Positions 3,911-64,000 of a stretch of DNA of 64,000 bases are shown here, in pieces. A program made the position numbers and the translations under genes. The stretch comes from Octopus vulgaris (Eukaryota). The notes under the pieces are model-generated. The model searched no databases, was not told the DNA's origin, and saw nothing but the letters and a program-made list of their open reading frames with translations. The stretch lies in the NCBI GenBank assembly GCA_951406725.2, contig OX597817.1, positions 84,754,001-84,818,000 on the forward strand. Reading direction: 5' to 3'. Each line of letters starts with the position of its first letter. The stretch's first letter is position 1.

Positions 3911-4686
3911 CTCCCTCTCTCCTTTTCACCTGTCTCAGAGGCCTCATAAAGATTCATGGACACAGGCTTCCCTTCTGACAAAAAGATAAAAAAGAAAAAT
4001 GGTAATTCCAACTCTTACAAACTAAAACACATTTGGAATATTGCTTATTCTATGTGTGTCAGCTGTCAGCTTGATGATTATTTTATGACAGATAAATGAT
4101 CCATAAATTGATTCCTGACATACTAAAAGTGTTCTCATGTTTCACAAATTCTGGTGAAAACTGTCAAATTACAGTTCTATCATCATTTCAGTTGATTATT
4201 GGTTATTGTACACTACCTTCTGTCAGTAGAATGACAGCAGTATTCAAATATAGTAATTTGTTGGTTTCATTATAAATGTGTGTAATACTAGAAATTTAAT
4301 ACAAAACATCACAATCAAAATTGGGTACTAGCATTACACTCAAGATTTTTAAAAAGTATGGATAAAAGGGGATAGACTATTTTACTGAGTTTTAGATACA
4401 CTTAGCTGTGGCAGGATGCATTACATTTGAGATAACATATGATTTTTGTAAATACTATGATATTCCATATAAGTGGATACAGCTGAGACAGTGGTGTCTC
4501 AGACTAAAAGCTTTAAAGTATTTAGTTTTTATACTTATATCCAATTGTGCAATCTTGAGCATGTCTCTTCTATTATAGCCCTGGGCCAAACAGAGTCTTG
4601 TGAATGGATTTTGTAGATAGAAACTACACAGAAGCCTGTTATGTTTTCTGTATGTGTGTGTGTGTGTAGTGTATATATAAATATAA

Positions 4687-4718
<32 letters not shown>

Positions 4719-4719
4719 T

Positions 4720-4761
<42 letters not shown>

Positions 4762-4763
<2 letters not shown>

Positions 4764-5650
4764 ATATTTCAGAATGGTCATATTGCCAGTTTAGCCAATA
4801 AAAACACACGCACTATATATTTGGTGTTATATTGCTTCAGTGATATTTATTTTTTACATTAATCTTAATCTTATTTCGGCCAGAGTTCTTTCGTCACACT
4901 CCTGTGACCGCATCAGTGGTCCTTTGTTTTCTTCTCACTTATTTGTGTCTCTCCTTACTAACCGTCAGCCATTTTGTATTTCTATTGTATGTCTTCATTT
5001 GCGCATGCTTATATCTCTATGTGCGTCTATGTTTATTTAGTGTGTGGGGGGGGATGCCTGTAATATTTGTATCTTCTGTTTATATACATTCATGTAATTT
5101 GTATTTTGTTTTTGTTGTTGCTTTTGTTCTAATTTTGTTCATGTGTTTACATCCACCCATTATTATCATTACATATGCTTGTATGTATGTATAACAACAT
5201 TATTATTATTAATATTGTTGTTATACATACATACAAGCATATGTAATGATAATAATGGGTGGATGTAAACACATGAACAAAATTAGAACAAAAGCAACAA
5301 AAACAAAATACAAATTACATGAATGTATATAAACAGAAGATACAAATATTACAGGCATCCCCCCACACACACACTAAATAAACATAGACGCACATAGATA
5401 TAAGCATGTGCAAATGAAGACATACAATAGAAATACAAAATGGCTGACGGTTAGTAAGGAGAGACACAAATAAGTGAGAAGAAAACAAAGGACCACTGAT
5501 GCGGTCACAGGAGTGTGACGAAAGAACTCTGGCCGAAATAAGATTAAGATTAATGTAAAAAATAAATATCACTGAAGCAATATAACACCAAATATATAGT
5601 GCGTGTGTTTTTATTGGCTAAACTGGCAATATGACCATTCTGAAATATAA
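4762..5650. repeat. 889-bp near-perfect palindrome (about 438-bp arms, about 16-nt spacer) in a PCTP intron; Penelope-type terminal repeat with a hammerhead-like motif in each arm
   Basis: 4762-5199 is the reverse complement of about 5216-5650 with few differences; near-identical ORFs appear on both strands; related single copy at 36618-36770. Confidence 0.95.
5490..5534 (+). ncRNA. Minimal type-I hammerhead-like motif (A9C variant); mirror copy 4878-4922 on minus
   Basis: GGACCA-CUGAUGC-G-GUCAC-aggagu-GUGAC-GAAA-G-aa-CUC-UGGCC. Confidence 0.6.
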
Positions 5651-5722
5651 TAATATCTGTTTCAACACACAACTTCACATAAAAAATCTTGCACAACAAA
5701 TATTTAAACGTATATATATATA

Positions 5723-5780
<58 letters not shown>

Positions 5781-11520: not shown

Positions 11521-11811
11521 TGGCTTAGATTAGTCCACATATATATATATATAGTGTAATAAATAAAATATATGCATACATACAAACATATGTATGTACC
11601 TACATCTACATGCATATATAAATATATACGTAAGTACAGGACACCACAACTAGACGTAGAACTCAACGAGAAATGAAAACGGAAAAACAAGCATGGAACA
11701 AACCATTTTTTTACAACAGAAAAACAGAGTATATAAATATATGTATTTATACATATATATATACACATACATATATATTATATTATACATATATATTGTT
11801 ATATATATATT

Positions 11812-11846
<35 letters not shown>

Positions 11847-11847
11847 T

Positions 11848-13515
11848 ATAACCTTTGGCGCTCCTGATGTCTTAGCAGCAATAAAGGAAGTGAAGCACAA
11901 TTCAGCAGTAGGTCCCGATAGGTTCCCTGCTTGTGTTTTGAAGATGTGTCAACACCAACTTGCACCCCCTCTAGCCAATCTGTGGCGGAACTCACTGGAT
12001 GCTGGATATATACCAGAAGACCTTCTATCCCAGTCTGTTGTCCCAGTTTTCAAAAAAGGAAACAAATCGCTTGCCGTGAATTACTGTCCAATCTCACTCA
12101 CCTCACATATCATTAAGGTATTTGAGAGAGTGCTGAGATCGCGTATGATTCACTTCCTCGAGAGTCTTAATATGCTGAACTCCAACCAGCATGGATTCCG
12201 TAATGGAAGAGATTGCCTGACGCAGCTACTGCATCATTTTGATGACATTTTGAGAGCCTTGGGAGAGGGTTCCAACACTGATGTCATCTACCTTGATTTC
12301 AGCAAGGCCTTTGACAGGGTTGATCATAAGATCCTTTTGAGAAAGCTGTCCAATATTGGTGTCACTGGAAAGCTGCTGCAGTGGATCAAGTGCTTCCTGT
12401 CTAACAGAACCCAACATGTTGTAGTCGAAGGAGTCAAATCCAGCCCAGCCAAAGTCAGCAGTGGTGTCCCACAAGGCACTGTGTTAGGCCCACTTCTCTT
12501 CATCATCTACATTAATGATATTACTGACACCATCAAACACAGTAACATCAGAACCTTTGCTGATGATTCCAAGCTCCAGAAGGTCATCAATGGCGTGGAT
12601 GACCGAAAAAGCCTTCAGTCAGACTTACTGGCTGTTGTCCAATGGGCGGAAAAGAACAACATGTTGCTAAACGAAGACAAATTCAAACTGATCCACTTTG
12701 GAAGGGAGGATGCTCTGAAACTCCCATACTCCTTTCCTTCTGGAGAAATTCTCATGGCGTCTAACAACATCAGAGACTTGGGAGTAACAGTGGACAACAA
12801 CATAAGCTGGGCTACACATATAAGCAGCAAAGTTGATATGGCCCGCAGAATGTGTTCCTGGATTCTCAGAACCTTCCAGTCGAGAGATTCCCACACCATT
12901 ATCTCCACTTTTGCCCGACCCCACCTTGAATACTGCTGTCCACTGTGGTCTCCCTACACAAAACAAAATATTATGAGAATTGAAGCTCCCCAAATGTCAA
13001 TCACAAAAAAGATAGATGGCATGTCAGACCTCGACTACTGGGGTAGACTAGAGAAACTGAAACTGTATTCACTCCAACGACGCCGTGAACACTACATTAT
13101 CTGTATGATGTGGAAAATATTCCATCAGCACTGTCCGAATGATGTTGGCATCACCTTCAAAAAACATCCAAGGCTTGGACCACGTGCCATCCGTCCGCAA
13201 CAAAAATCTAAATCGCATCACATAACGACAATACGGCACAATTATTTCACCTCAATTGGACCCGCTCTCTTCAATATTACACCAGGACACGTCAAAACAA
13301 AAACTGACCACACAAAATTCAAGAAGTCTTTGGACAAATTCCTTCAAACAGTCCCGGACAAACCACCCACACCCAGATGTCTCCGCAAACAATAACTCTC
13401 TGCTCGAATGGGCCTCGGTGCCCAAATCCTGAATTGAAAGACTTCGCCAGGTGGTGCTATTAAGTTAGACATGGCCTGGGCCAATAATGGCCAAAACCTT
13501 TCTAAGTTATTTCTA
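11848..13515 (+). mobile_element. 5'-truncated CR1-group LINE with an open reverse transcriptase ORF (11890-13395)
   Basis: 501-aa ORF with NYCPISLTS, QHGFRNGRDCLTQL, YLDFSKAFDRV, GVPQGTVLGPLLF, FADD, DLGVTVD, RPHLEYCCPLWSP; CpG-rich; flanked by (TA)n; no endonuclease domain. Confidence 0.95.
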
Positions 13516-13783: not shown

Positions 13784-14026
13784 AATATATAAAATATATA
13801 ATATATATATATATTTATATATATATATATAGAGATGTTATGAGAGGTAATGGTGTCAGTAAGACCCAAGGGTGCCAGGTAATGCTGAGTAAGTGCTATG
13901 GATAGACCATAGTTAAGCTCCAGGTTCGGTGATTATGCGAATAAGGAGTGCAACATAGATCATATATCAGCATGGGTATATATAAAAAAATTTTTTTTTC
14001 CAAAATGTGATAAAAAACCAAATCTT

Positions 14027-14212
14027 TGAGGAATTTAGAACATTTATAAACAGGTCTTACAGCTGTTTCCAGGATATTTATTATATCCCTTCATCGGAGA
14101 CAGTGTGAGAAAATGGTTAAATATTTCTCACACTGTCCCCAATGAAGGGATGTAATAAATATCCTGGAAACAGTTGTAAGACCTTCTATTTATAAATGTT
14201 CTAAAATCTTCA
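14027..14212. repeat. Fold-back element with a hammerhead-like motif in each arm
   Basis: About 85-bp inverted arms; minus arm GUCU-CCGAUGA-AGGGAUAU..AUAUCCUG-GAAAC-AGCU-GUA-AGAC (14054-14101); more degraded plus copy at 14135-14182. Confidence 0.8.
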
Positions 14213-14259
14213 CACTCTTGGTTTTTTACTTCATTCTGAAAATTTTTTTATATATAATA

Positions 14260-17549: not shown

Positions 17550-18620
17550 CATGATTTCTGATTTAGACACAAGGCCAGTAATTTTGAGAGGAGTGGTATC
17601 AACAAACCCATTATTTGACTGGTACTATATCTTATTGATCCTGGAGAGATGAAAGGGAATGTTGATTGAAGCAGGATTTGAACTCAGAATACAATGAACA
17701 GGAAGAAATATTCCAAAGCAATTTTTCTGATGTTCAAGCTATTCTGCTACTTTGCTACATTAACTACACTTATAATAATGACTTGCTGAGGCAGAAGAGC
17801 AGAAAATTTGGAGGAGGTGGTTGGTTGTATTTACAGCAAAAGTTGACTGGTACTTTTTTTATATCAATCCTGAAAAGAAGAATAGCAAAAACAAACTTGA
17901 CAGAATTCAAACTCAGATTGCAAAAATAAGAATTCTTAATATTGATTTAAAATTTTGTCACAAGGTAAGGGGAGTGGTAAGTCAATTGCATCAACCCAAG
18001 TGTTCAACTGGTACTTATTTTATTGACCCTGAAAGAATGAAAGACAAAGTAGATCTTGGTGGAATTTGAACTCAGAACATGAAGATGGAGAAAATGCCAC
18101 TAAGCACCTTGCTCTGTGTGCTAACAATTCTGTCAGCTTTCCACTTTATAATAATCCTTCATATTGAGTATCAATAACTAATATTATAACTATTAATTAA
18201 GGCTGTGAATTGGATAAAATGCTTAGCAGTATTTCATCAGCCTTCATGTTCTATGTTCAAATTACACCAAGGTTGACTTAACTCTTCATCATTTCAGGGT
18301 CAATAGAGTAAGTACCAGTCAAGCACTGGACTTGCTTCTTCCTCCAAAATGGCTGGTATTGGACTTTTACTATTAATTTTATAGTATAAATAATATTTTA
18401 TTATTATAAATAATATTTTTATTATTGATTAAGGTAGCAAACTGGCAGAATTATTAGAGTTGGACAAGTGGATTTTTTTTTTTTGACTCATTGTGTTCTG
18501 AGTTCAAATTCTGCTGAGGTTAACTTTGTTTTTATCCTTTTGGGATTGATAAAATAAGTACCAGTTAAACACCAGGGTCAATGTTATCAACTTAGCCTTG
18601 TTCTAAAATTTGAAATCATT
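17550..18620. mobile_element. Cluster of about 5 tRNA-derived SINEs with a Meta-like central domain (3 minus, then 2 plus)
   Basis: Repeated ctggcagaat..ttagc..gagttcaaatt..ggtcgactttgcctttcatcctttc..gataaa..aagtaccag; further copies near 1995, 25680, 27550, 32560, 32710, 34068, 46545, 53473, 54790, 54920, 57343. Confidence 0.85.
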
Positions 18621-25665: not shown

Positions 25666-28561
25666 TTGTTATAATATAGATTTCAAATTTTAGCACAAGG
25701 CCAGCAAGTTCAAGGGAGGGGCTAAGTCAATTCAACTTGTACTTATTTTGTCAACCCCAAAAGGATGAAAGACAAAGTTGACCTCACTGGAATTTGAACT
25801 CAGAACAAAGATGGACAAAGTGCTGATAGGCATTTTGCCTGGCATGCTAATAATTCTGCCAGCTTGTTGCCTTTTTGCTTAAGGCTATGAATAATAACTC
25901 AGTATTTGTAGCTGATAATGTGCAATGAAGCAGGAAGACATATATTTTATGGTCCATTGACATTATCCATAGTCCAATGGATGTCTAACATGCATATTAT
26001 TTATAAGGAGAATTTTTTTCTTGAAACAATGTCTGTAGTGTATTTATTTCCATATCTGTGCATACACGAACATATTAAATATGATTGTACATACCTATAT
26101 TTCATTCAATGTTACTTAGTGCACCTCTAGTTAATTAATTCCAGTTTGACAAAGCTGGACACATCAGCAAATGTACTATTGCTGTTATGATATAAGAACA
26201 AGAAGTTCTTAGTGGATATGCATGAAAACTCGGTACTCATAGCAGACAAATGTGTAAAGGAGGCAGAAACACATGTCCTACAGTCTGATGACATCATGCA
26301 TAACACAATGGTGTATTTTGCACATATATAGTCAATAAGGAGAATTTTTTCCTCTTGAGTCAGTTTCTGCACTGTATATATTTCCATGTCCAAGTGTATG
26401 TGAACATGTTCAAAATGATTGCTCTCATTCAACACTGCTTAGTGCACCTCTAATTAGATATTAAATATTATAAAGTCTCACTGTGGGTTAAATATAAAAT
26501 ATAGATACATTCTTTCTATACAACTGATGCACAGAAAAAAAAAGAAAGAACATATCTCCTGAAATTATTCCATAAGTTAGTGACCACTCCTCAGAGCATG
26601 TACTAAATAATATACCATAGACCAACTATTATATAAAGAAATCTAAAATTTTGCTAGCATACAAGTGGTTAGACTAATTTGCATATTTTTGCTTTTGACA
26701 GTTTGTTATTGATCAAGAAATATTATTTTTATGCACAACACAGCATAAACCAGAAGAACCAGTTCTTGTAATTTAAGGTGTGTTGTGTATAAAGTAGATA
26801 TTATTTAAATAGAGTTACTTTCTGAAATTAGTGTAAAAGACTGGCAATGGCAGTGCATAGATAGAATTGGAAGCACATAAGACAAAATCATCATCATCGC
26901 CACCACCACCATGATCATTGTTTTACTTTCCACTTTCCCATGTTTGCATGGGTCAGACAGAGTTCATCAAGGCAGATTTTCTGCAGTCAAGTGGCAGGTT
27001 TTCAACAGCCCTTTCTAGTGCCAACCTTCACCTGTTTTGCTATGATTTCAGGGCGTAAATAGAGGGAGATTTGGCTATTATTTGTCATAAATTGAGAAGC
27101 CCTTATGCAAAGGGTATTTCATTAGTTTTTGCTTCAACTTGCTGATTGCTGTCGTCAGACAATTTACACTAGAATTAATGAATATTTCACTGGCTGGTAG
27201 TACTAAGTTCTATTCTTCTTACTTTTATGTTATCCAGGTAGAAACATTGTTTCTCATTTTCTTTAAGGCTATAAACTTTAGAAATAATCCCTTTGGATCA
27301 AGGTAGAGTCTCTATCAATCAGTGTTGGTCATGTATTTTTACACCTATATGTGCACGTCTAGGCAAGGTTTCACTTTCTGTAGGAGACAAGTAGATACCC
27401 ATGTATGCAAGTCTCCTCTTTCATCCAAGGTAAGTGTTTGACAAGTGATGTGACAGTCATTGCTGTCAGAACACTAAGAATCAGAAGAGATACTACAAAG
27501 CATCTTGTCTCATTCCTCTAACATTGCTGGTAATTCAATTTTCAAATAGGTATTTTTTTTTTTATCAACCTTGAAAGGATAAAAGGCAAAGTTGACTTTG
27601 GTCGGATTTAAGCTTAGAACATAGAAAGTCAGAACAAATACTGCTAGGCATACTATTCAATGTCCTAACAAATTTGCCAATTTTCCATCTTTGTGTATCA
27701 AGCATCAACTAATGAAAAGACAAAGCCCATCATACAGGAGCCTTAAATGTTGAATGTTAGAAAAATAACTTAGAAAGTACTTGCTAACATTAAAAGAAAG
27801 CATTAGCCATAAAGAAAGATTATGAATTAAAATAGAACAAAAAATACAAAAAAATTGGCAAAGGAATTTTTGTGCCGATTACCTAAATTGCAAAGTTATT
27901 GGAACAAAGGAAACTTTCCTTACACCAGAATATTAACTTACCCTTCTGAGCCAAGAAACAAAATAGAAATTAGGAAAGCTGCCAAGCCATTAGGTAGGTA
28001 AGTCAGCAGGTATGAAATGAGATAGTTCTGTTCCAGAATTTAAAGGATAAATTGCATACATTCATGTGTGTATGTGCACGTGCTCTATGAGTGTAGAAGC
28101 ATATATGAAACATGTATATAAATATGTAGCAAATGCAACAGGTAAGTCTGTTCACCATTTTAATGTTGAGCTGTTCCTATTCTTGAACAGTATATATAAA
28201 AGAAATATATTATAATCTCAGTGTCAAGAAGTAGGTTCTTTTATTTTTATCTTAAATCATCATCAATGTCATCATCAATGTCATCACCACTGCCATCATT
28301 GTCATCATCATGATCATCTTTTGGATATCCATTTTTCCATGTTTGCATGGATCAGACAAAATTCAGTGGAGTAGATATTTTTAAAGGCCAAACGCTCTTC
28401 CTGTCACCAACTCTCACCTCTTTCAAAGCAAGGTAATATTTCATCATGGCTAAGTGTGCTCTTCATGGAAGATTGGAAATGAAGGACACTGCTTGTATGA
28501 TGGTGATGCTTGCTTACAACAATCATGTGATATCAAGACAAAGCGAAACAAACACAGACAT

Positions 28562-30935: not shown

Positions 30936-32999
30936 ATATATATACACACACACACACACACATGTATATATACAGTCAGACAGACTGACATATATAGACA
31001 CAAACATAATACACCCATGCCACACACACTTATAAAGAGAGGAAATAGGAAGTTGCTATGTTCATGATCATCACAATTTTATTAGTGCCATTATTATGTC
31101 ACTTGAAATTTCTACTGAGAATTCTTCTTTACATGGCATTTCAGTGACGAAAGCTATATTCATTGAAATGCTATGTGAAGAATTCTTGGTCAGTACCAGT
31201 TTTTAATTAATGGTTGCATAGATATAAACATTAAATTTCAAGAATATGAGTTAAGGAGAGAGTTCTTAATAGCATCACTTTAACTGCTAGAAATAGCAAT
31301 CAAATATGTCTTAGATCACACTGTAGCATCTTAAAAAAACATAAAGGATACATTGAAGAATATTGTTCATGTCAGAGCATAAGAAAAAAAGTGAGCGAGT
31401 GACATGTCTTTGGGTGTAAGTCTAGTGAGTGGGTTAAACCATTCATATATATATATATTGGCACTTATCAAAATAGTCACTCTGTTAATTCTCTTAAATA
31501 TCACTAAAAATATAAACATACACATATCTACACACCCCACACACACATGCAGATATATACTATATATATATGATGGTTTCCTTCAGATTTCGACTATCAG
31601 ATCCACTCACAAAGCTTTGGTCTTCATGCATGCATGTATGTATGTATGTATGTACGTACGTACGTATGTATGTATGTATGCATGCACATACGTACGTATG
31701 TATGTATGTATAAGTATATGGGCACACATATATAAGCACACTACTGTGCATAATTATTGCGTCTACAAAAATAATTGGTATTATATTAAAATACTCAAAG
31801 ATATATATAAGTATTCATATGATGACTTGGTGTTTTAAAACTTTGCAAAAAGACATTATGGAATGTGTGGAAATATATAAGATTTCTATATTTTACATTT
31901 AATTTTAGTTTGCAAAACTATGGTAAAATTTTGGGATATTTCTGTAAAAAAATTGGGTGGTGCTGTATGAAGAAGGAGGAAAATGAAGAGTAAGGGTAGG
32001 AGGGGAAAAGGAGAATGGAAAGGAGAAAGGAAAGGAGAAAGGAGAGGAGGAGGAGGAGGAGGAGAAGAAGAAGAAGAAGAAGAAGAAGAAGCATTGAATC
32101 AGTTACCAAGGTAATATGAAGTTGATACAAGTTGTAAGAATCCATGGAAAAAATTAACAAAAAAGGAAAAAAAAATAACAAACAAAAACAATAACTATGT
32201 AATGTGTAGTGTCACAAAATGGGATACATCAGGTAGAAAGTATTTGAAGAATGCAAGACAAGAAAGAATTCAGTTACAAAACTTTCAAATGCATTCTTGA
32301 CTTGTAGCTTAACATACTTAAAGAAGAATCTGGAATTGTCGTAATTATAACACAATTATTAGTCATCACTTGGTTGAAATGGAACTAGGCAATTAAACTG
32401 CAAGAAGGTAAAAAATAAAAAAAATAAAATAAAATAAAGCAAATGGATTATTTTTGCCATTAATAATTGGATGAACTTTCAGAACAGCTGTCATAATTAA
32501 AATGAAATCGTGACAGCTATTAAAAAAGTCCACAAATAATTGTCTCTTGTTTATGTATAAGATCAACAGTTTTGAGGGAAGGATTGAGCAGGGGTTAATC
32601 TTGACTGATACCTTATTTCATTGACTCTGAAAGGGGTGAAAGGTAAATCTCACCTTGGCAGAATTTGAGCTCAGAACATAAAGAGCTGGTCTTCCTGTCG
32701 TTAATAATTGTTTCAAATTTTGGCATAAAAGCCAGAAATTTTAGAGGGAGATGGGACTAGTTGATCACATCAACCTGACTGCTACATTCTTTTATTGACC
32801 ATAAAAGGATGAAAACCAACGTTGACCTCAGCAGGATTTGAATTTAGAATATAAAGAAAGAGCCAGTAAAAATGCTGGCAAGCATCTTACTTGATATACT
32901 AGCAATTCAACCAGCTTTCCACCCTACTAATACCACTTTCTTTATTTACCGCCAAAAAAAACATTGAGGACAATACAGTACAATGTGGGATTACATAGA

Positions 33000-33730: not shown

Positions 33731-34579
33731 ACTGATTACCTGTTTCTGAATTAATATGTAAATAGTTGAGTACTCCACAGTTACATGTACCCTTAACATA
33801 ATTCTCAAACAGGATCAACCACTCACAGTGTGTAACAAGGCTGTACCTTTGAAATATTGGTATAATCCATCTGACAGACTTTCACACAGTTTCTGTCAGC
33901 CTAATTTCACACACAGGATATGAGACAATCTGAGATAATCAGAAATGACATTTGCTCAATTGTCCATGTAGTAGAATCAGTTTCTGGAGCCCACAGTTGC
34001 AAAGCAAACTCTTAACCATTTAGCCAAACAGTGTTTACATATCTAAGTTAAATGTGTATGTGAGGAAAGATGGCAAATTGGCAGAATCATTAGCATGCGA
34101 AGCAAAATGCTTAGTGACATTTCATCCATCTTTATGATCTGAATTCAAATTCCGCCAAGGTCAACTTTACTTTTCTTCCTTTTGAAGTTGATAAAAAAAA
34201 TGTACCAGTTGAGAACTAGGGTGGATGTAATTGACTTACCCACCTCATCCAAAATTGCTGGCCTTGTGCCAAAATTTGAAACCTATATGTGTGGGTGAGA
34301 AGTAGTTCTGAAGAGTAATATGGAAAGATGAAGAAAACAATGCATAACAAAAACAAAAAAAAATCAAAGGGATACAAAATCGATTAAAGAAATAGTATTG
34401 AAGAGTTCCAGTCAATCATATCAAAACTATATATTTTATTTTATGTCTGAGCACTGCAAAGTCTCTGAACCTAAACACAGACAATATGTTCCATTTTCAA
34501 AAAGCAATGTTCTAACCATGTTAACTTTGAAACTATTGCACTCATTTCCAATAATAATCATTAACAATGATGGTTGCCA

Positions 34580-41329: not shown

Positions 41330-41950
41330 CCCTTAGAATCGTTAGCACACCAGACAAAATGTTAGGAGGCATTTCCTTCGGGCTTCAAATGCTGTCGAGG
41401 TCGACTTTGCTTCTCATCTTTTGGGAACCGATAAAATAAGTACCAGTTGAGCACTGGGTTCAATGTAATCAACTAACCTTCCTCCCCTAAAATTTCTGGC
41501 CTTGTGTCAAAATTTGAACGCATTAAGAGCGGCGGTGACTGGCAGAATTGACTCACAAAACAATGCCTTGTGGTATTTCTTATGGTTCTTTACTTTCTGA
41601 GTTCAAATCCCGTCAAGGTCAACTTTTGTTTTTCATCTTTTCAGAGTCGATAAAATAAAGAACCAATTGAGCACTAGGATTGATGTGACTCGTTTCCTTC
41701 CCCTAAAATGGCAGGCTTTTTGCCAAAATTTGAAATCCTTCTTAAAGACAGCGCACGAGCAGAATCATTAGAACACCAGGAAAAAAAGAAAAAAAAAAGG
41801 TCGTAACATTTGTTCCAGCTCTTAATTTTCTGAGTTCAAATCCCATTGAGATGAATTTTACTTTTTATCCTTCGGGAGTCGATGAAATAAAGTACCATCC
41901 AAGAACTGGGGTCGCTATAATCAACTAATCACCACCAGCCCTCAAAACTG
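41330..41950 (+). mobile_element. Three head-to-tail Meta-domain-like SINEs
   Basis: Three successive units of about 200 bp, agaatc..ttagc..gagttcaaat..gataaaataagtacc. Confidence 0.8.
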
Positions 41951-46077: not shown

Positions 46078-47196
46078 TCCGCCTATCGCGGAAGTACCAC
46101 ACACAGAAACATTTATTTAAGAAGCAATTAAAAAATTCTAGGCACTTATAGACGCGAAAGTAGTACAGAAAACTACTAAGATGCTGTGGTTTATTAATAC
46201 TTTTATATTTTACTATGTTAGGCTTATACCCCACCTATATATATATATATACATTAATAAAGAAAATAAAACATATGCATATATATAAACATATATGTAC
46301 GTACCTACCTCTACATGTACATATACACGCATATATGAGTACAGGACACCAAAAAGGACGTCGAACACAATGAGAAACGAAAACATAGACACAAACCAAA
46401 GGAACTGGACATTTATTTAAAAACAGCAAAAAAATAGAGTACAGGACAATTAACACAAAGAAAAAACCCCGTCTTCAGTCGCTAAAGGTTTCATCTACTC
46501 TACGTTACACACAAACGGACAATACATAGAAGAGTTGTTTTCAGATGTAGGCACAAGCCCAGCAATTTTACTGAGAGAGGGTTAGTCGATACCATTAAAC
46601 CCAATACTTGGCTGGTACTTAATATTATCGACCTGAAAGAATAAAAGGCAAAGTCGATCTCGGCAGTATTTGAACTCTGAATGTAAGAAACCAGAAGAAA
46701 TGCTAAGCATTTTAACCGATGCGCTAATGATTCTGTCATTTCGCAGTCCTTAGAATATATAAAAAAATAATAACAATGCTAATAATGTGTATTTGTGCGT
46801 GCATGTTTCGTCAAAGGGTAGTAAACAAACGTTACACTTGGAAAGACACTTTCATATATATATATGTATGTGTGTGTGTGTATGAAGAAAAAGTTGTGTT
46901 CATCATTCTCCCAAGCGTATTAGAGACTCCCAAAAATGGAAATCCCATCGAATTTAAAGATGACGATTCCGTAAAATTGAAGAGAATCTGTCACTGAGGA
47001 ATACGATTATACTTAGGATTTTCTCTTTCTTTCTTCGCACTTCTCCGACTTTTATATGTGTCCGGAGAGAGAATCATACATATATGATTAAATTTCTAAT
47101 AACAATGCAATGTAGTCTGAAAGCACAAGTTAAATTTTAATAATTATCCATCCAAGACAGCCACATCCACTAAATAAATCTTATAACAGCTACTGA

Positions 47197-50835: not shown

Positions 50836-52031
50836 AATGCAAGATATTTGAATTTAAATATCACACGCACACAGACTTCTGTGTGTGCGCGCATGCAAAT
50901 AGCTGCAGCTGTTCTGTAGAATGGCAGATGCTTTGTAAAGTTTCTGTTATTGTTCTTACCAACAGACGATTCAATTATATTTTAGCGTCCTTCGTTCGCC
51001 TATGTATGAAATTAATATACATATAGTCCAAGTGTGTAATTGTGTGCGCTTGTATGCAAATTGCCCCCTTCTATGTGTAAACTGTCCCCTAAATATGCAA
51101 ATTACTCCTCCCCTATTTGTATGTTTCTTCCTGTTTTGGATTGATAAGTTCGTTGGTTGACGTTTATTGATTCTTATATTCACTGGTTGACAATATTTAT
51201 TTACGTCAGATTCTGTTTTCTTTTTTTTTCTTTTGAACGGCAGTTGATAAACTGTTGGACCGATAAAAAAAAATAATCGACAGAAAAGGGGGAAAAAAGT
51301 GAATACAATGAAATTCTTTGTTGTTCTCCCCTCCGATTTAAATCTAATTTATAAAGCAAGTTGTCAAGTTGTTGAATTAAAAAATTAAATACCCATGGAA
51401 TCTTGCAGTAATTTTTTTTATCAAATGTTTTTAATGCATATTTGAGTATATATTTCATATTTAGTGTGTGTGTTATATAATCGTTTTATTGCTTAGATAC
51501 ATTCATACATGTTTATCAGCATACACACAGATATACATGTCAATATATGTCTACGTATATGCTTGTATGTATGTCTCTAAAAGACTTATATGTGTATTTA
51601 TGCGTTAAACAAAAATGTGTATGTATAGGCACACACTCATATACATGAGTGTATGAGGTGGACGAAGAGTTATATTTCTTAAGATACAAACAATAAAAAT
51701 GTTCTAATAATTTATATTAATAGTAAAAAATTAATTACCATTTTTTAATGTACTTTTGACGATATATCTCTGGATGTATAAGTATTGAATTAATTACATA
51801 AATACACCACAGTGAAATTAGGACACATAGTATTGGCTGCTTTATCAATATTGGGCTTGTGCTAATGTTAAGACTCGTTATTATCGACTTTACAGTTCAT
51901 ACTACTGTGGTCGATAAAATACAAGTACCAGTGAAATACTAGGATCGATAAAGTCATCTCTAGTCCACCTCCACCTCCACCCCCAATAAAACATGAGGCC
52001 TTGTGTCAAAGTGGAAAAAAAGTAGATAAAT

Positions 52032-53446
52032 TTTGATCCTTTCACCCGCACGATTTTCACTAAGAAAAAAAAAACAAACTCGGATTTTTTGCGAGGAATC
52101 AAGTGCCCTGACCCCCTAATATGCTGCAAACCCCTTATTTTTGTTCGTAAATTCCAGGAATCATTGGAATTTTTTTTTTTTTAATGAATTCTGGTGACCT
52201 CCTAATATGCTACAAAACCCTTTTTCGGGTCCGGAAAACGGGGTGGGTGCGGTGGAAGCCTCGAAAATTTCACCCTCCACCCCCATTGATCTTTACACTC
52301 GGACGATTTTCACTAAGAAAAAAAAAACGAACTCGGATTTTTTGCATGGAATCAAGTACCCTGACCTCTTAATAGGCTGCAAACCCTTTATTTTTGTTTG
52401 GAAAAAAGGTGGGGGAAAACCGGACCCCACCTCCATATCTCAGAATCATTGGAAATTTTTTTTTTTATTGAATGAATTCTGGTGACCTAATATTTTACAA
52501 AACCCTTTTGGGGTTCGGAAAACGGGGTGGGGTGAGGTGGAACCCTCGGAAATTTCACCCCTATCCCCATTTTCAAATATTTTTTGCTATATATTTCTTT
52601 AGCCATAATCTTAGATAAACATTTTGCAGAAATACGTTTTCAAGAGAGTGCGGATTACATTAGACTGAAAATTCAAAGGTTTTAAGAGTGTGTGGATTAC
52701 ATAAGATTGAAAATTCAAAGAAGTTTGAAATAAGTTAGTGAAAATGCAGAGGTCATAGAAGTTAGTGGTAACGAAGTCTGTGGAGAGATAAAGAATGATA
52801 AATTCATCTAAAAAAAAACACGTTTTTGCATGGATGTGTGAAACGAAGTAAAAGTATAATATTAAAACAAAATACCTCTGCATTTTCACTAACTTATTTC
52901 AAATTTCTTTGAATGTTCAATCTAATGTAATCCACACACTCTTAAAAACGTACTTCTACAAAATGTTATCTAAAATTATAGGTAAAAAGAAAAATAGTAA
53001 AAAAATTTGAAAATGTGGGTGAGGGTGAGATTTCCGAGGTTTCCACCTCACCTCACCCCACTTTCTGGACCCCAAAAAGGGTTTTGTAGTATATTAGGAG
53101 GTCACCAGAATTCATTCAATAAAAAAAGAATTTCCAATGATTCTGGGATGGAGGTGCTGGCTTCCCACCTACCCCTTTTTTCCAAACAAAAACAAGGGGT
53201 TTGCAGTATATTAGGAAGTCAGGGTACTAGATTTCATACAAAAAATCTGTGTTTCTTTCGTTTTTCTTAGTGAAAATTGTGTGATTGAATAGAACAATCG
53301 AGTGGAAGGGGGTGAAATTTGCAGAGCCAAAAAAGGGTTTTGTAGCATATCAGGAGGTCACTGGAATTCATTCAACGGAAAAAAAATTGTCCAATGTTTC
53401 CAGGATATGGAATCCTTGGAAAATCGTGTGGGTGCAAGGATCAAAT
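52032..53446. mobile_element. About 1.4-kb fold-back DNA element with modular, internally repeated arms
   Basis: Termini ttgatcctttcacccgcacgattttc / gaaaatcgtgtgggtgcaaggatcaa; about 255-bp subunit duplicated in the left arm; arms converge on a spacer near 52755-52870; partial copies at 61790-61990 and 62880-63060. Confidence 0.8.
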
Positions 53447-53689
53447 AATACCAAAAAATGTTATTATTATTAAGGCTGCAAGCTGGCAGAATCGTTAGCA
53501 TGCCAGTCAAAATGCTTAGCTACATTTTGTCTGTCTTCACACAAATTCCGCCAAGGTCGACTTTGCCTTTCATCCTTTCAGGGTCGATAAATTAAGTACC
53601 AGTGAAACACTGGAGTTGATGTAATCAACTCGTCCCCTTCTCCAAAATTTCAGGCCTTGTGCCTATAGTAGAAAGGATTATTATTATTA

Positions 53690-54250
53690 GTAGCTGAATG
53701 ACCCAGCATTGCCCAGGTTACTGCTGTACTTATTCAGATTAGCAAACAATAAAAATGAAGATATATTTTTTTCTCATAATTATTTTAAAATATCTATATT
53801 TTATTTTTAAAAAATCCAAATTGTAATGCTAATAGAATTTAGAACTGAAGATCTGTCAATCTTGAAGCACCTCAGGGTAAACAATATTCATTGTGTAATT
53901 TTTTGTTGGTGTCCAAATAAATAAATTGTTGCTACTTCCAACTCATGAGCAAGCAGCATAGAGTTGGCCATGGGAGAAGTATGTAGTAGAGAGATCAAGT
54001 CCAACTACCCTGAGGGATTGACCCTGAGATTTGTTGACTGAAGCCTCTTAAATTCCAAATGGAACATTTGTATGTATGAGAGGAATTTTTAGAATAAGAA
54101 CATTTTCTCCTTTGTGACTACCTGTTATGATTGTTGCCTCTAGGATATGGGTCTTCATGGAGGTAACAATAAAGCAAGTTCCATTACACAGGTGAGATGG
54201 GTCAAGATTCCTAAGCAACATAATGGGAGCACCCAGCTTTAGTGTAGATG
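53690..54250 (-). mobile_element. Helitron 3' fragment (PIF1-like helicase C-terminus and 3' hairpin)
   Basis: Minus translation LKLGAPIMLLRNLDPSHLCNGT...ILEATIITGSHKGENVLILKIPLI...NKSQGQSL...HGQLYAACS; end cctgggcaatgctgggtcattcagcta. Confidence 0.85.
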
Positions 54251-54350: not shown

Positions 54351-54781
54351 CAGTTCTATATTTAAGAGATGAGGAATTATGTACATTATTTATATTATTT
54401 ACATTCGACAGATATTTGTCCTCATCTTGTTTGTTGTTAACACAATGTTTCGGCTGATATACTCTCTAGCCTTCTTCGGGTGTCTTGGGGAAATTTTGAA
54501 CTTGGGTTCTCATTCCTAAGGTATTTTTCGATGTTGTTGTTATTATTATTATTATTATTATTACTATTGTTCAGGTCACTGCTTGGAATTGAACTTAGAA
54601 TCTTGGGGTTAATAGCCCTTGCTCTTAACCCCAAGATTCTAAGTTCGATTCCAAGCAGTGACCTGAACAATAGGAATAATAATAATAATTATAATAATAA
54701 TAATGGTAATAATAATATAATAATAACATTGAAAAATACCTTAGGAATGAGAACCCAGGTTCAAAATTTCCCCAAGACACC
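54351..54781 (-). mobile_element. tRNA-head/hammerhead SINE-like element, copy 2, with inverted 5' duplication (palindrome 54479-54781)
   Basis: Same 3' end (cagttctatatttaagagatgagg on plus) and body as 60994-61259; hammerhead core mutated to CCGAAGA. Confidence 0.85.
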
Positions 54782-55149
54782 TTATCTACGTTCTGAGTTA
54801 AAATGCCTCTGGGGTCGACTTTGCCTTTCATCCTTTCAGGATCTATAAATTAAGTAACAGCTGACCACCTCATCTGAAATTTCAGGTCTTGTGCCTATAG
54901 TAGAAAGGATTACTATTATTATAGCAGTGAGCTAGCAGGATCATTAGCACCCCAGACAAAATGCTTAACAGCATTTCGTTCTGAGTTCAGATTCTGCTGA
55001 GATAGATTTTGCCTTTCATCCTCTTGAGGTCAATAAATTTTGTACTTGTAGAGCACTGGAGTCTATTATTTAGTAGTCTTACTTTTATCACAGGCTTTCA
55101 CTATCCTACCAAGCAGTGAAAGCCTGTGTGCTTCGGTTTATTTTGGTAG

Positions 55150-57230: not shown

Positions 57231-57682
57231 TATTTTTAAAGCTTTTTTTTGTCTCACATTTTCTCTTTTCCTCAATTTCTTTGCTGTAAATCCTCTCCTT
57301 CAAACACTCATACATCAAAATCAATGGGAGTGATCATTATTAAGGTGGTAAGCTAACAGAATCATTAGCATGCTGGGCAAAATGCTTGGTAGCATTTTGT
57401 CCATCTTAATGTTTTGAGTTCAAATTCTGCTAAAGTTGACTTTGCCTTTCATCTTTTCAGGATTGATAAATTAAATACAAGTTGAGCACTAGGGTTGATG
57501 TTTTCAACTACCCACCCCCACCAACTTTCAGGCTTTGTACCTAGAGTAGAAAGGATTATTATTATTAACTAATGGGACTTGTGAATATTAGATTGCTTGG
57601 AAACAGGTAAGGGTTGCTGAAAGGAAGGCATCTGGTTGTAGAAAATCTGCCTCAACAAAATTTAATTTGACTTATGCGGACA

Positions 57683-60993: not shown

Positions 60994-61273
60994 CAGTTCT
61001 ATATTTAAGAGATGAGGAATTATGTACATTATTTACAATTGATGGATATTTGTCCTCATCTTGTTTGTTGTTAACACAATGTTTCAGCTGATATACCCTC
61101 CAGCCTTCATCAGGTGTCTTGGGGAAATTTTGAACCTGGGTTCTCATTCCTAAAGTATTTTTTGATGCTGTTTATTATTATTATTATTATTCATGTCGCT
61201 GCCTGGAATCGAACTCGGAATCTTGGGGTTAGTAGCCCGTGCTCTTAACCACTATGCCAGCATAGTGGTTAAG
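60994..61273 (-). mobile_element. tRNA-head/hammerhead SINE-like element, copy 1
   Basis: Minus strand: A box TGGCATAGTGG (61259-61249), B box GAGTTCGATTCC (61216-61205), (AAT)n, hammerhead 61118-61073, tail; 14-bp inverted copy of the 5' end at 61260-61273. Confidence 0.85.
61073..61118 (-). ncRNA. Minimal type-I hammerhead ribozyme motif
   Basis: GACAC-CUGAUGA-A-GGCUG-gaggguauau-CAGCU-GAAAC-AUU-GUGUU; stem I GACAC/GUGUU. Confidence 0.75.
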
Positions 61274-61513: not shown

Positions 61514-62122
61514 TATCTGAAAAGAAACAACAACTTTAGCAAAACATATTAAGCAACACTAATAATAAATCAAAAAAATATTAAAATAAACAAGCTTTTG
61601 ATGGTTTTATAGATATTTCAAAATATGATGCTATGATGCTTGGTGTTTCCATTATTTTGTCCAAACCCTGTATATATGCATACACACACACATTTCATAG
61701 TCAACGACTTCAGAAAAATATTTTTGGCATAAAATACACACAATATAAATGTTAACACATTAATTCATAGAGTACCAACTAGTAAATATTTATTTAATAA
61801 GAAACCATGTAATCCACACTTCTCGAAAACGTATTTCTGTAAAATGTGTGTGTGTGGGGGGAGGGGGTATTTCCAAGGGTTCCCACCCACCCAACCCCCG
61901 TTTTCCGGACAAAAAATAGTGTTTTGTGGCATATTAGGGGGTCATTGTAATTCATTCAATGAAAAAAAAAAAAAAATTGAAAAAATGATTAATATTGACA
62001 TTATTATCCGGAAACGAAATTGGAAAAGAAAAAATACTGCAATGGGTGTAAAAAAAAAAGGTGTAGGAAACAAGTATGAAAACAAAAATCCCCGGAAAGC
62101 AATGCACGGTGGGAAGAGGCCT

Positions 62123-62536: not shown

Positions 62537-64000
62537 AGAGGCCTTCGGAAAATTCACAAGATCCGATGTTTTTCTCTCTTTTCGGAAAATGTTTTATTTT
62601 TCCAAATGAAATTTTATATAAATATCTTTGAAACGGTATAGATTACGATTATAAAGAAATTTGTAGGGAAAAACTTTTCCGAGAGGGTGGGGGAGAGGAC
62701 TTCGAAAAATTCACAAGATCCGAGTTTTTCCCTCGAAATTTTGAGGAAAATTTAATGCTTTTAAAATCACAAATTAGGCTTTTCCTCAGGAACTTAGATG
62801 CTAAACATCCCTTTGACGGGTTCGAATCCTTACGGCATCAACTTTTAGACATTATTTATTAAAAAAAACAAAAACAATTATAACAATATACAATGATTCC
62901 AGGATGGGGGGAGGGGTCGACCCCATCTTATTTCGAACAAAAACAAGGGGTTTGCGGCACATTAGGAAGTCAAGGTACTTGATTCCACGCAAAAATCCGA
63001 GGTTATTATTTTTTTTCTTAGTGAAACGGGTGGGGGTGTACTTCCCAAAATTTACCAAAGATTTATTTCTATGGTTAAATAATTAATAGATGTCAACACA
63101 AGTAATATTGGAGGAACATTTATATCAACAAGCTCTGACGTAAGTTGAATGAGATCGAAAACAAAAAATCGTTATACTACTGTGAACAAGGCCGGATTAA
63201 ACCTTACTTTGTCTTGAAAACAAAGAGGGCACCAAGAAAAGAGGGTGTCACAGAACTTACGCAATCCGAAAGATTGCCTAAGATAATAATTTATATTACA
63301 GGTATTTAGTGTTAAATAATTACATTAAATAAAAATTTAAATAAAAGCACGTTAAACTGGTGTGAAAGAAAACTAAAGTTTTAATCTCTTATTTCACAAC
63401 CAGTACTTATGTCTTGTCAGGCAAAGGACGGTCGAAGGGGACACCATTGTTATAGTCTGCTCAAGGACAACGTTTCTGCTAAGGTTTAAAAGGGAGAGTG
63501 GCTGTGAGAATTGAAAAAGAGGGGTTGACAAATTGCTGTGTTTAATAAATTTAAGGTGGTTTTAAAACTTGTACTGCACCAAGGTTAAGAAGAAAAAATT
63601 ATTATATGAATAAAAACGTTATTTAATTAATAAGGTGCACACAAAACAGCGAGAATCAATAAACTAACAATAACGTATCTATTCATTCTTGATACATTCT
63701 GGCAGATTCGAACCTCAATGTACTGATCGCTGTTGTATTTCTTCTTCGGAGAATATTTCTCTTTACATGTGTGTTCATAAACCGTGATTCGTGCTCTCTT
63801 AATAAAAAGGAACCTGATAGCAGAGGCCAGCTGAAAACAACGGCCACTCGTGCAGTTGTCCAGTCTGTCGTTTGTATTTCAGATCTTCCAGATTACAAGG
63901 AGTAAGGGAGATGAGAATATAATGAAATGAAAATTTTAAAATATGAGTATCTTTAGAGTGGAGTAAAGTTTATTTTAACTATTGCATAGATAAGCGTATC

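Follow-up and report, generated by a model that had tools for sequence, protein, structure and literature searches.

A tRNA-headed hammerhead repeat of Octopus vulgaris as the probable solo pseudo-LTR of a Penelope-like retrotransposon with a putative Pol III promoter

The 280-bp hammerhead-bearing repeat that is present twice in the analysed window of Octopus vulgaris (a stretch of 64,000 nucleotides of contig OX597817.1) is very probably a solo pseudo-LTR (pLTR) of an abundant, decayed, putatively endonuclease-bearing Penelope-like retrotransposon. Its unusual feature is the tRNA-derived front end, where most short copies begin. Our preferred reading, with a probability of about 0.55, is that this head acts as a polymerase III (Pol III) promoter and that the reverse transcriptase (RT) of the element copies its own terminal repeat as a SINE-like by-product. 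A preliminary description of the window had proposed a chimeric SINE. A separate non-autonomous family is not supported by our data, since the whole unit, including the head, corresponds to the pLTR of an autonomous element and short and ORF-linked copies exhibit no diagnostic differences. To our knowledge, the promoters and RNA ends of Penelope elements have barely been mapped. In the octopus family the RNA start is readable from insertions that number tens of thousands, and A and B boxes are situated at this start. Three problems thereby become accessible to testing: the possible use of a Pol III RNA as the template of a retrotransposon, the formation of head-to-head arms and the origin of a SINE with an enzyme other than that of a LINE. 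Moreover, repeats that are annotated as SINEs in genomes of this kind may be the ends of Penelope elements. Should the head be a passive relic, the family would be an ordinary one among the Penelopes, odd in its terminal repeat.

The organization of the two window copies is presented in Table 1. In copy 1 the first 7 nt of the head are missing, and the sequence that follows the 14-bp inverted arm sets in with the A box (head +8). The tRNA-like head on the minus strand with its A box, anticodon-arm-like part and B box, which had been recognized initially, is present in this copy, and the proposed order of (AAT)n, hammerhead and a tail of about 80 nt was borne out, with 84 nt between the predicted cut and the 3' end at 60994. 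Copy 2 is 84% identical to copy 1 and ends at the same terminal 3' base, as had been noted, and both copies carry the reported inverted duplications of their 5' part (14 bp and about 150 bp, respectively). The intact hammerhead core claimed for the repeat is found in copy 1 (CUGAUGA/GAAA), but copy 2 has the mutated core CCGAAGA. Neither window copy shows a target site duplication (TSD) or poly(A), in accordance with the preliminary description; the lack of poly(A) extends to all 102 long ends surveyed in the family, whereas TSDs are common in it.

Table 1. Positions of the repeat features within the window
Feature	Position	Strand	Basis
14-bp inverted arm, reverse complement of head +10 to +23, forming the 5' junction of copy 1	61260..61273	-	sequence
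tRNA-derived head from +8, first part of the pLTR	61192..61259	-	host tRNA alignment of family copy L092
A box	61259-61249	-	copy 1 head
Anticodon-arm-like part	61238-61226	-	copy 1 head
B box	61216-61205	-	copy 1 head
(AAT)n linker, length highly variable between copies	61174..61191	-	sequence
First 51 ORF codons, duplicated in the terminal repeat (ATG 61147-61145)	60994..61147	-	ORF-5'-selected loci, majority frame
Minimal type I hammerhead	61073..61118	-	sequence; fits the min-HHR description in PMC4209133 (available part)
Hammerhead CUGAUGA	61113-61107	-	
Hammerhead GAAA	from 61085	-	
Predicted hammerhead cut	between 61078 and 61077	-	
Optional Penelope 'tail' of 25-30 nt between the two 3' ends of the family	60994..61024	-	
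Copy 2, begins at head +17, without A box, hammerhead core mutated	54351..54630	-	
Inverted arm of copy 2, cut off in hammerhead stem I by an adjoining copy of another repeat family	54631..54781	+	

The assignment to a pLTR is based on the sequences that flank the repeat elsewhere in the genome. Several tail-selected loci share sequence upstream of the head that translates as an RT followed by a GIY-YIG-like domain. Conversely, the head follows the ORF in 28 of the 30 loci that were selected with ORF sequence alone (one of them being the locus of the query), and the stop codon ends 30 nt before the head. At the opposite end of the element the tail lies directly upstream of the ORF in 14 of 24 ORF-5'-selected loci, while the remainder are truncated before the tail. 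The complete succession of head, (AAT)n, hammerhead, tail, ORF and second head is retained in the near-complete copy L080, which starts at head -2 against unique flank. The majority-rule frame is open for 835 codons from an ATG inside the repeat, hence hammerhead and tail represent the ORF's own start, as in Poseidon. They comprise its first 51 codons, with the predicted cut 70 nt and the long 3' end 154 nt after the ATG. The tail, for which the preliminary description had recommended a comparison with autonomous Penelope elements, is the beginning of a Penelope-like ORF and not a LINE 3' end.

The 835-aa majority protein contains the motifs DKG, YGLPK and YVDD, followed by VYSIPC/YKGET, and a natural ORF fragment matches the RT domain PF00078 (E 2.8e-8). 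From its motifs we take the VYSIPC...YKGET region, with a CxC and two His motifs downstream of the RT, to be a putative GIY-YIG-like C-terminal domain. A 99-aa fragment of it had no match in Pfam or PDB; its Atlas neighbours lie at 0.96, and 14 of 30 matches belong to clusters with PF01541 on 20% of the members. The domain order and an RT-EN linker without a cysteine cluster point to the Penelope/Poseidon clade, as far as motifs can tell. Short (78) and ORF-linked (34) arms share the same majority base in 250 of 250 columns, no column passes the Bonferroni correction, and the divergence amounts to 5.1% and 5.7%, respectively. Judged by these alignments, both kinds of copies are one family of one age without a separate SINE lineage in the sample. 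The ORF-bearing copies are a minority, as 4 of 19 position-sampled insertions extend beyond the head in the upstream direction. Internal deletions in L271, L273, L279 and L283 link the beginning of the ORF body (420-460 nt) to a tail at similar positions, and this type is possibly a non-autonomous subfamily.

Position sampling of 140 stretches of 10 kb retrieved the family in 19 of them (one being a divergent fragment) and yielded an estimate of about 38,000 insertions in the 2.8-Gb genome, with a Poisson range of about 23,000-59,000. The tail was reached from the head in 28 of 30 head-selected loci, in some of them across later insertions, and 27 of 30 tail-selected loci contain at least part of the head or continue past it on the upstream side; both sets are biased to intact copies because such searches return the best-scoring ones. 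The initial view that head and hammerhead tail constitute one unit rather than separate sequences is therefore corroborated. The (AAT)n linker has repeatedly been hit by other repeats, which split the head from the tail in L098, L100, L109, L111, L141, L018 and L019.

The insertion signature was surveyed in 128 loci with a tail arm, after nine duplicate loci had been dropped. Head-to-head pairs are found in 51 of them, in agreement with the frequent 5' inversions that had been anticipated, and 47 of these 51 insertions exhibit unequal 3' ends with one long arm and the other ending 25-30 nt earlier. Flanking duplications of at least 8 bp are present in 33 of the 51 head-to-head insertions (mismatched-flank control 6%), and those of at least 10 bp with at most one mismatch in 27 (control 0.8%). 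The absence of TSDs is accordingly not a family trait, as had been assumed from the two window copies, and their presence here supports a Penelope origin rather than speaking against it. An A-rich stretch following the long 3' end was found in none of 102 cases. The single fixed 3' end of the preliminary description was replaced by two family ends about 25-30 nt apart (11 short, 10 long and 4 other position-sampled arms). The ends of the copies fall 55-85 nt beyond the predicted hammerhead cut, which rules out as template an RNA ending at this cut; a transcript of this kind was among those that the preliminary description had suggested to look for. The arrangement of inverted arms, unequal ends and TSD has been described for endonuclease-bearing Penelope elements, as far as the available parts of the sources go (PMC8557442, PMC3846280). 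According to the accessible text of PMC11167929, the RT of Anolis Poseidon has two internal start sites, which match the two 3' ends of the octopus family, and uncleaved RNA is its main substrate. Penelope-type copying of the family is well supported, and mobilisation by a Penelope RT rather than a LINE, as originally suggested, is favoured by the tail asymmetry, the inverted arms, the minimal hammerhead, the missing poly(A) and the sequence shared with a Penelope-like ORF.

The predicted ribozyme consists of stem I (GACAC/GUGUU), CUGAUGA with an extra A, stem II, GAAA and a palindromic stem III. Stem III of copy 1 reads GAAACAUU, which shows that its palindrome is decayed. Among 169 aligned arms the commonest form is GAAACGUU (46 arms), exactly the consensus that had been predicted from the window, and most of the remaining ones are CpG-decay forms. 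The majority sequence of the 169 arms combines CUGAUGA with GAAACGUU, and both are intact in 36 of them. Covariation is not expected in the hammerhead because the copies descend from near-identical masters. Rfam searches (gathering cut-off on the window; E-value mode on L092) detected neither head nor hammerhead, ARAGORN did not detect the head as a tRNA, and folding of monomers yielded neither hammerhead nor cloverleaf (z -1.9, -1.3 and +1.5). Minimal type I hammerheads of metazoan Penelope-like elements (PLEs) are characterized by a 5-bp stem I, an unpaired nucleotide 5' of stem II and a palindromic minimal stem III, and they occur in many solo copies and in opposite-strand pairs 100-700 bp apart (PMC4209133). 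All these traits are common to the octopus repeat, and the predicted ribozyme itself shows no difference from the available part of this description. One locus, L119, is a head-to-tail dimer of the repeat whose units both start at the same base, and its adjacent hammerheads could form a dimeric ribozyme.

The head of family copy L092 aligns over 70 columns with the host tRNA-Arg(TCG) (z 7.5 compared with shuffles), and other host tRNAs align nearly as well; the assignment of the parent is tentative because the 20 tRNA loci compared are only a sample. A pattern search for a tRNA-Thr-like parent found none. Several tRNA-Cys genes and variants are clustered within 3 kb in L290. The majority sequence retains A and B boxes in tRNA register, and the head no longer folds as a tRNA according to folding, ARAGORN and Rfam. 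The 5' ends of the insertions are concentrated at its start. Of the insertions that extend as far as the head start, 6 of 9 in the position-sampled set and 19 of 24 in the tail-selected set go no further than +10 or a position before it (together 25 of 33, one ORF-only fragment left out), and the other truncations are scattered from -42 to beyond -1370. Excluding ORF-3'-selected loci, 90 head-bearing insertions comprise 16 that read through, 31 with a palindromic junction and 43 without a palindrome. The non-palindromic junctions are located at -4..+5 in 34 and at -2..+1 in 21 cases, with one beyond -7. This classification misfiles a few loci (among others L035, L105 and L162 as palindromic; L020, L021, L052 and L109 as non-palindromic). 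Like L080, L284 begins at the head start, and two ORF-5'-selected loci reach an upstream head, one of which (L271) reads through as a partial tandem.

A further property that bears on the promoter is the distribution of T runs. The sense strand of the majority sequence contains no T4 in 2,561 nt (mean of synonymous shuffles 2.8, P 0.034), with P ranging from 0.013 to 0.05 depending on the null, and G4 is likewise absent. Single copies are free of T4 over 1.28 kb in 22 of 30 cases. Other long ORFs of the sample served as the control, since a tblastn search for further Penelope families had yielded no more than short, remote fragments. These ORFs contain 74 T4 runs compared with 85 expected, and none of the nine with 550 aa or more is T4-free. 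One sequence used as T-run control, a stop-free frame of 552 codons at window positions 11737-13395 (+), was read by eye as a LINE-type RT. The absence of T4 gives a weak hint of a Pol III template. RNA-seq data were available from a related organism holding the family (one contig run and, from a single study, three runs of raw reads). Their depth is equal in both directions and rises at the head start as copy number predicts; the reads have no start or end in common, and no Pol III-like RNA was seen. With both directions equal and no shared ends, these data neither show nor exclude a Pol III RNA. Taken together, the 5' pile-up and the absence of T4 tip the balance somewhat towards a head that functions as a Pol III promoter of the internal type. 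Since RNAs made by Pol III lack a cap and are poorly suited as mRNA, the protein may come from other transcripts.

Under our preferred reading the RNA would start at about -2 of the head, driven by the A and B boxes, and the RT would begin within the RNA, at either of two sites that lie about 125 and 154 nt from the start of the ORF. Its template would be RNA that is not cut by the hammerhead, by analogy with Anolis Poseidon (PMC11167929, available part). Use of the upstream site on full-length RNA, or of a short transcript from any terminal repeat, would result in head-to-tail (SINE-like) copies, whereas a start at the downstream site would generate 5'-truncated ORF copies. Two cDNAs joined head to head would give rise to inverted arms inside one TSD. 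In L267 the 5' part of the ORF is fused directly to the head start, as expected from a template jump off a finished short cDNA. A more far-reaching scenario, which we put forward tentatively, is that a Penelope element became self-contained by capturing a tRNA-derived Pol III promoter in its terminal repeat, and that Pol III makes a terminator-free template of 2.9 kb from the 5' repeat, thereby combining the autonomous element and its SINE in one sequence. As a Penelope RT starts inside the RNA and does not depend on a particular 3' end, any solo repeat whose boxes are intact would then be a ready-made SINE. If true, the family would provide a snapshot of how Penelope-dependent SINEs are born.

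The position of the 5' pile-up may also be explained by RNA structure. In read-through RNA the upstream spacer pairs with head +1..+10 in a 9-bp hairpin (-9.5 kcal/mol) that has the head start at its apex and is the most stable 30-nt window in the natural copy L074, and stalling of the RT or snap-back of the cDNA at this hairpin could give the same pile-up. The repeat would then be an ordinary Penelope pLTR with a passive tRNA or SINE relic, whose 5' ends result from stalling or fold-back or from a chance Pol II start. We regard this alternative as possible, though less likely than a promoter. It agrees with the strong local hairpin, with the palindromic junction in 31 of 90 head-bearing insertions and with the RNA-seq data, in which no Pol III-like RNA was seen, and it has parallels in the palindromes at the pLTR 5' ends of Adineta Penelopes (PMC3846280) and in the internal TATA-less promoter of the Drosophila virilis Penelope (PMC2377424), both as given in the available text. 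However, the 43 junctions without a palindrome fall mostly into the hairpin loop (-2..+1) rather than at the base of the stem (near +10) or past its 5' arm, and a stall would not be expected in the loop. In addition, the spacer represents a decayed copy of the head start in inverted orientation (a score matched by 4 of 2000 shuffles), and the hairpin may thus be a fossil junction and an effect instead of a cause, as if a head-to-head junction had been fixed once in a master copy. On both grounds we gave the hairpin less weight. The tRNA register of the A and B boxes in the majority sequence and the absence of T4 on the sense strand likewise argue against a passive head.

The great excess of short copies over ORF-bearing ones (see above) and the sharp 5' end at the tRNA start are also compatible with an independent tRNA-headed SINE family with its own masters, which was trans-mobilised by a Penelope RT and one copy of which was later captured by the autonomous element. 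Trans-mobilisation through pLTRs has indeed been described (PMC3846280, available part). This scenario is improbable, given that no diagnostic column was found, that short and ORF-linked arms are of equal age, that the autonomous element carries the head in both of its terminal repeats and that the tail is the ORF's own start. By far the least credible explanation is a LINE-driven SINE, or a unit of the retrozyme or Sm-alpha type that is freed by hammerhead cleavage and copied from monomers or circles. The presence of TSDs and the single head-to-tail dimer L119 would conform to it, but head-to-head pairs with unequal ends dominate. Against it stand also the missing poly(A) at all 102 long ends, ends that fall 55-85 nt past the cut and a tail that belongs to a Penelope-like ORF; a LINE partner, a retrozyme and a cleavage-defined template were accordingly rejected.

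The closest known systems are Penelope/Poseidon elements, represented by Anolis Poseidon PAc (PMC11167929) and Adineta Pen2a (PMC3846280). The available parts of these papers describe a set of traits that is shared with the octopus family, namely a single ORF of about 840 aa with an RT followed by a GIY-YIG-like domain, which is putative in the octopus family, a 200-300 bp pLTR comprising the ORF start and the hammerhead, two 3' ends that differ by an optional tail, inverted arms on the 5' side, TSDs of about 8-15 bp and a palindrome at the 5' end of the pLTR. The octopus pLTR differs by the tRNA-derived head at its front, which contains A and B boxes and at whose start the short copies begin. 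The promoters described so far in the accessible text are TATA/Inr-like and predicted in Adineta (PMC3846280) and TATA-less and internal in D. virilis (PMC2377424). A Pol III-type promoter, putative in the octopus repeat, and a hammerhead are also combined in the short SINE-like Sm-alpha/Sj-alpha repeats of schistosomes, which the available part of PMC6765202 depicts as tandem units that are set free by cleavage in such a way that the promoter remains at the 3' end. The octopus copies, in contrast, are dispersed, do not end at the cut site and belong to a unit within an autonomous element. Short non-coding derivatives of PLE ends that are moved by PLE enzymes are likewise known from non-LTR retrozymes derived from pLTRs (bioRxiv 10.64898/2026.07.22.740005) and from non-autonomous Chlamys elements such as MRC1 (PMC8557442). 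The octopus family differs from the available descriptions of both by the lack of tandem arrays as a rule, the lack of a separate lineage and the presence of a tRNA head, which these descriptions do not contain. One head-to-tail dimer (L119) was noticed among 30 head-selected loci, without a systematic count of tandems.

The octopus repeats OR1 and OR2, which are named as CORE-SINEs in the accessible text of PMC4824008 and PMC4758252, and other tRNA-derived SINEs share the tRNA head with A and B boxes, the fixed 5' end and the tens of thousands of short copies. Unlike them, the repeat investigated here has no LINE-derived tail or poly(A) and is not independent of its partner, the comparison with OR1/OR2 being one of descriptions only. 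A literature search, whose scope excluded most subscription journals, Repbase, Dfam and SINEBase, retrieved no tRNA-headed pLTR and no Penelope-dependent tRNA SINE, and the supplement of PMC13282606 contains neither 'hammerhead' nor 'pLTR'.

The window harbors several other repeats. A second, commoner short repeat family, often in inverted pairs, is located at 17939-18594, 25674-25873, 32695-32932 and 34066-34288, with more copies at 41335-41897, 46237-46752, 53460-53694, 54790-55062 and 57321-57567; one of its copies adjoins the inverted arm of copy 2. Two further fold-back pairs at 13977-14256 and 4672-5755 (arm identity 81% and 91%, respectively) contain hammerhead-like motifs by eye and are probably the ends of other Penelope families without a tRNA head. 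Yet another repeat forms a complex cluster, with copies in direct as well as inverted orientation, at 52027-53405 together with 61853-61971 and 62882-63054.
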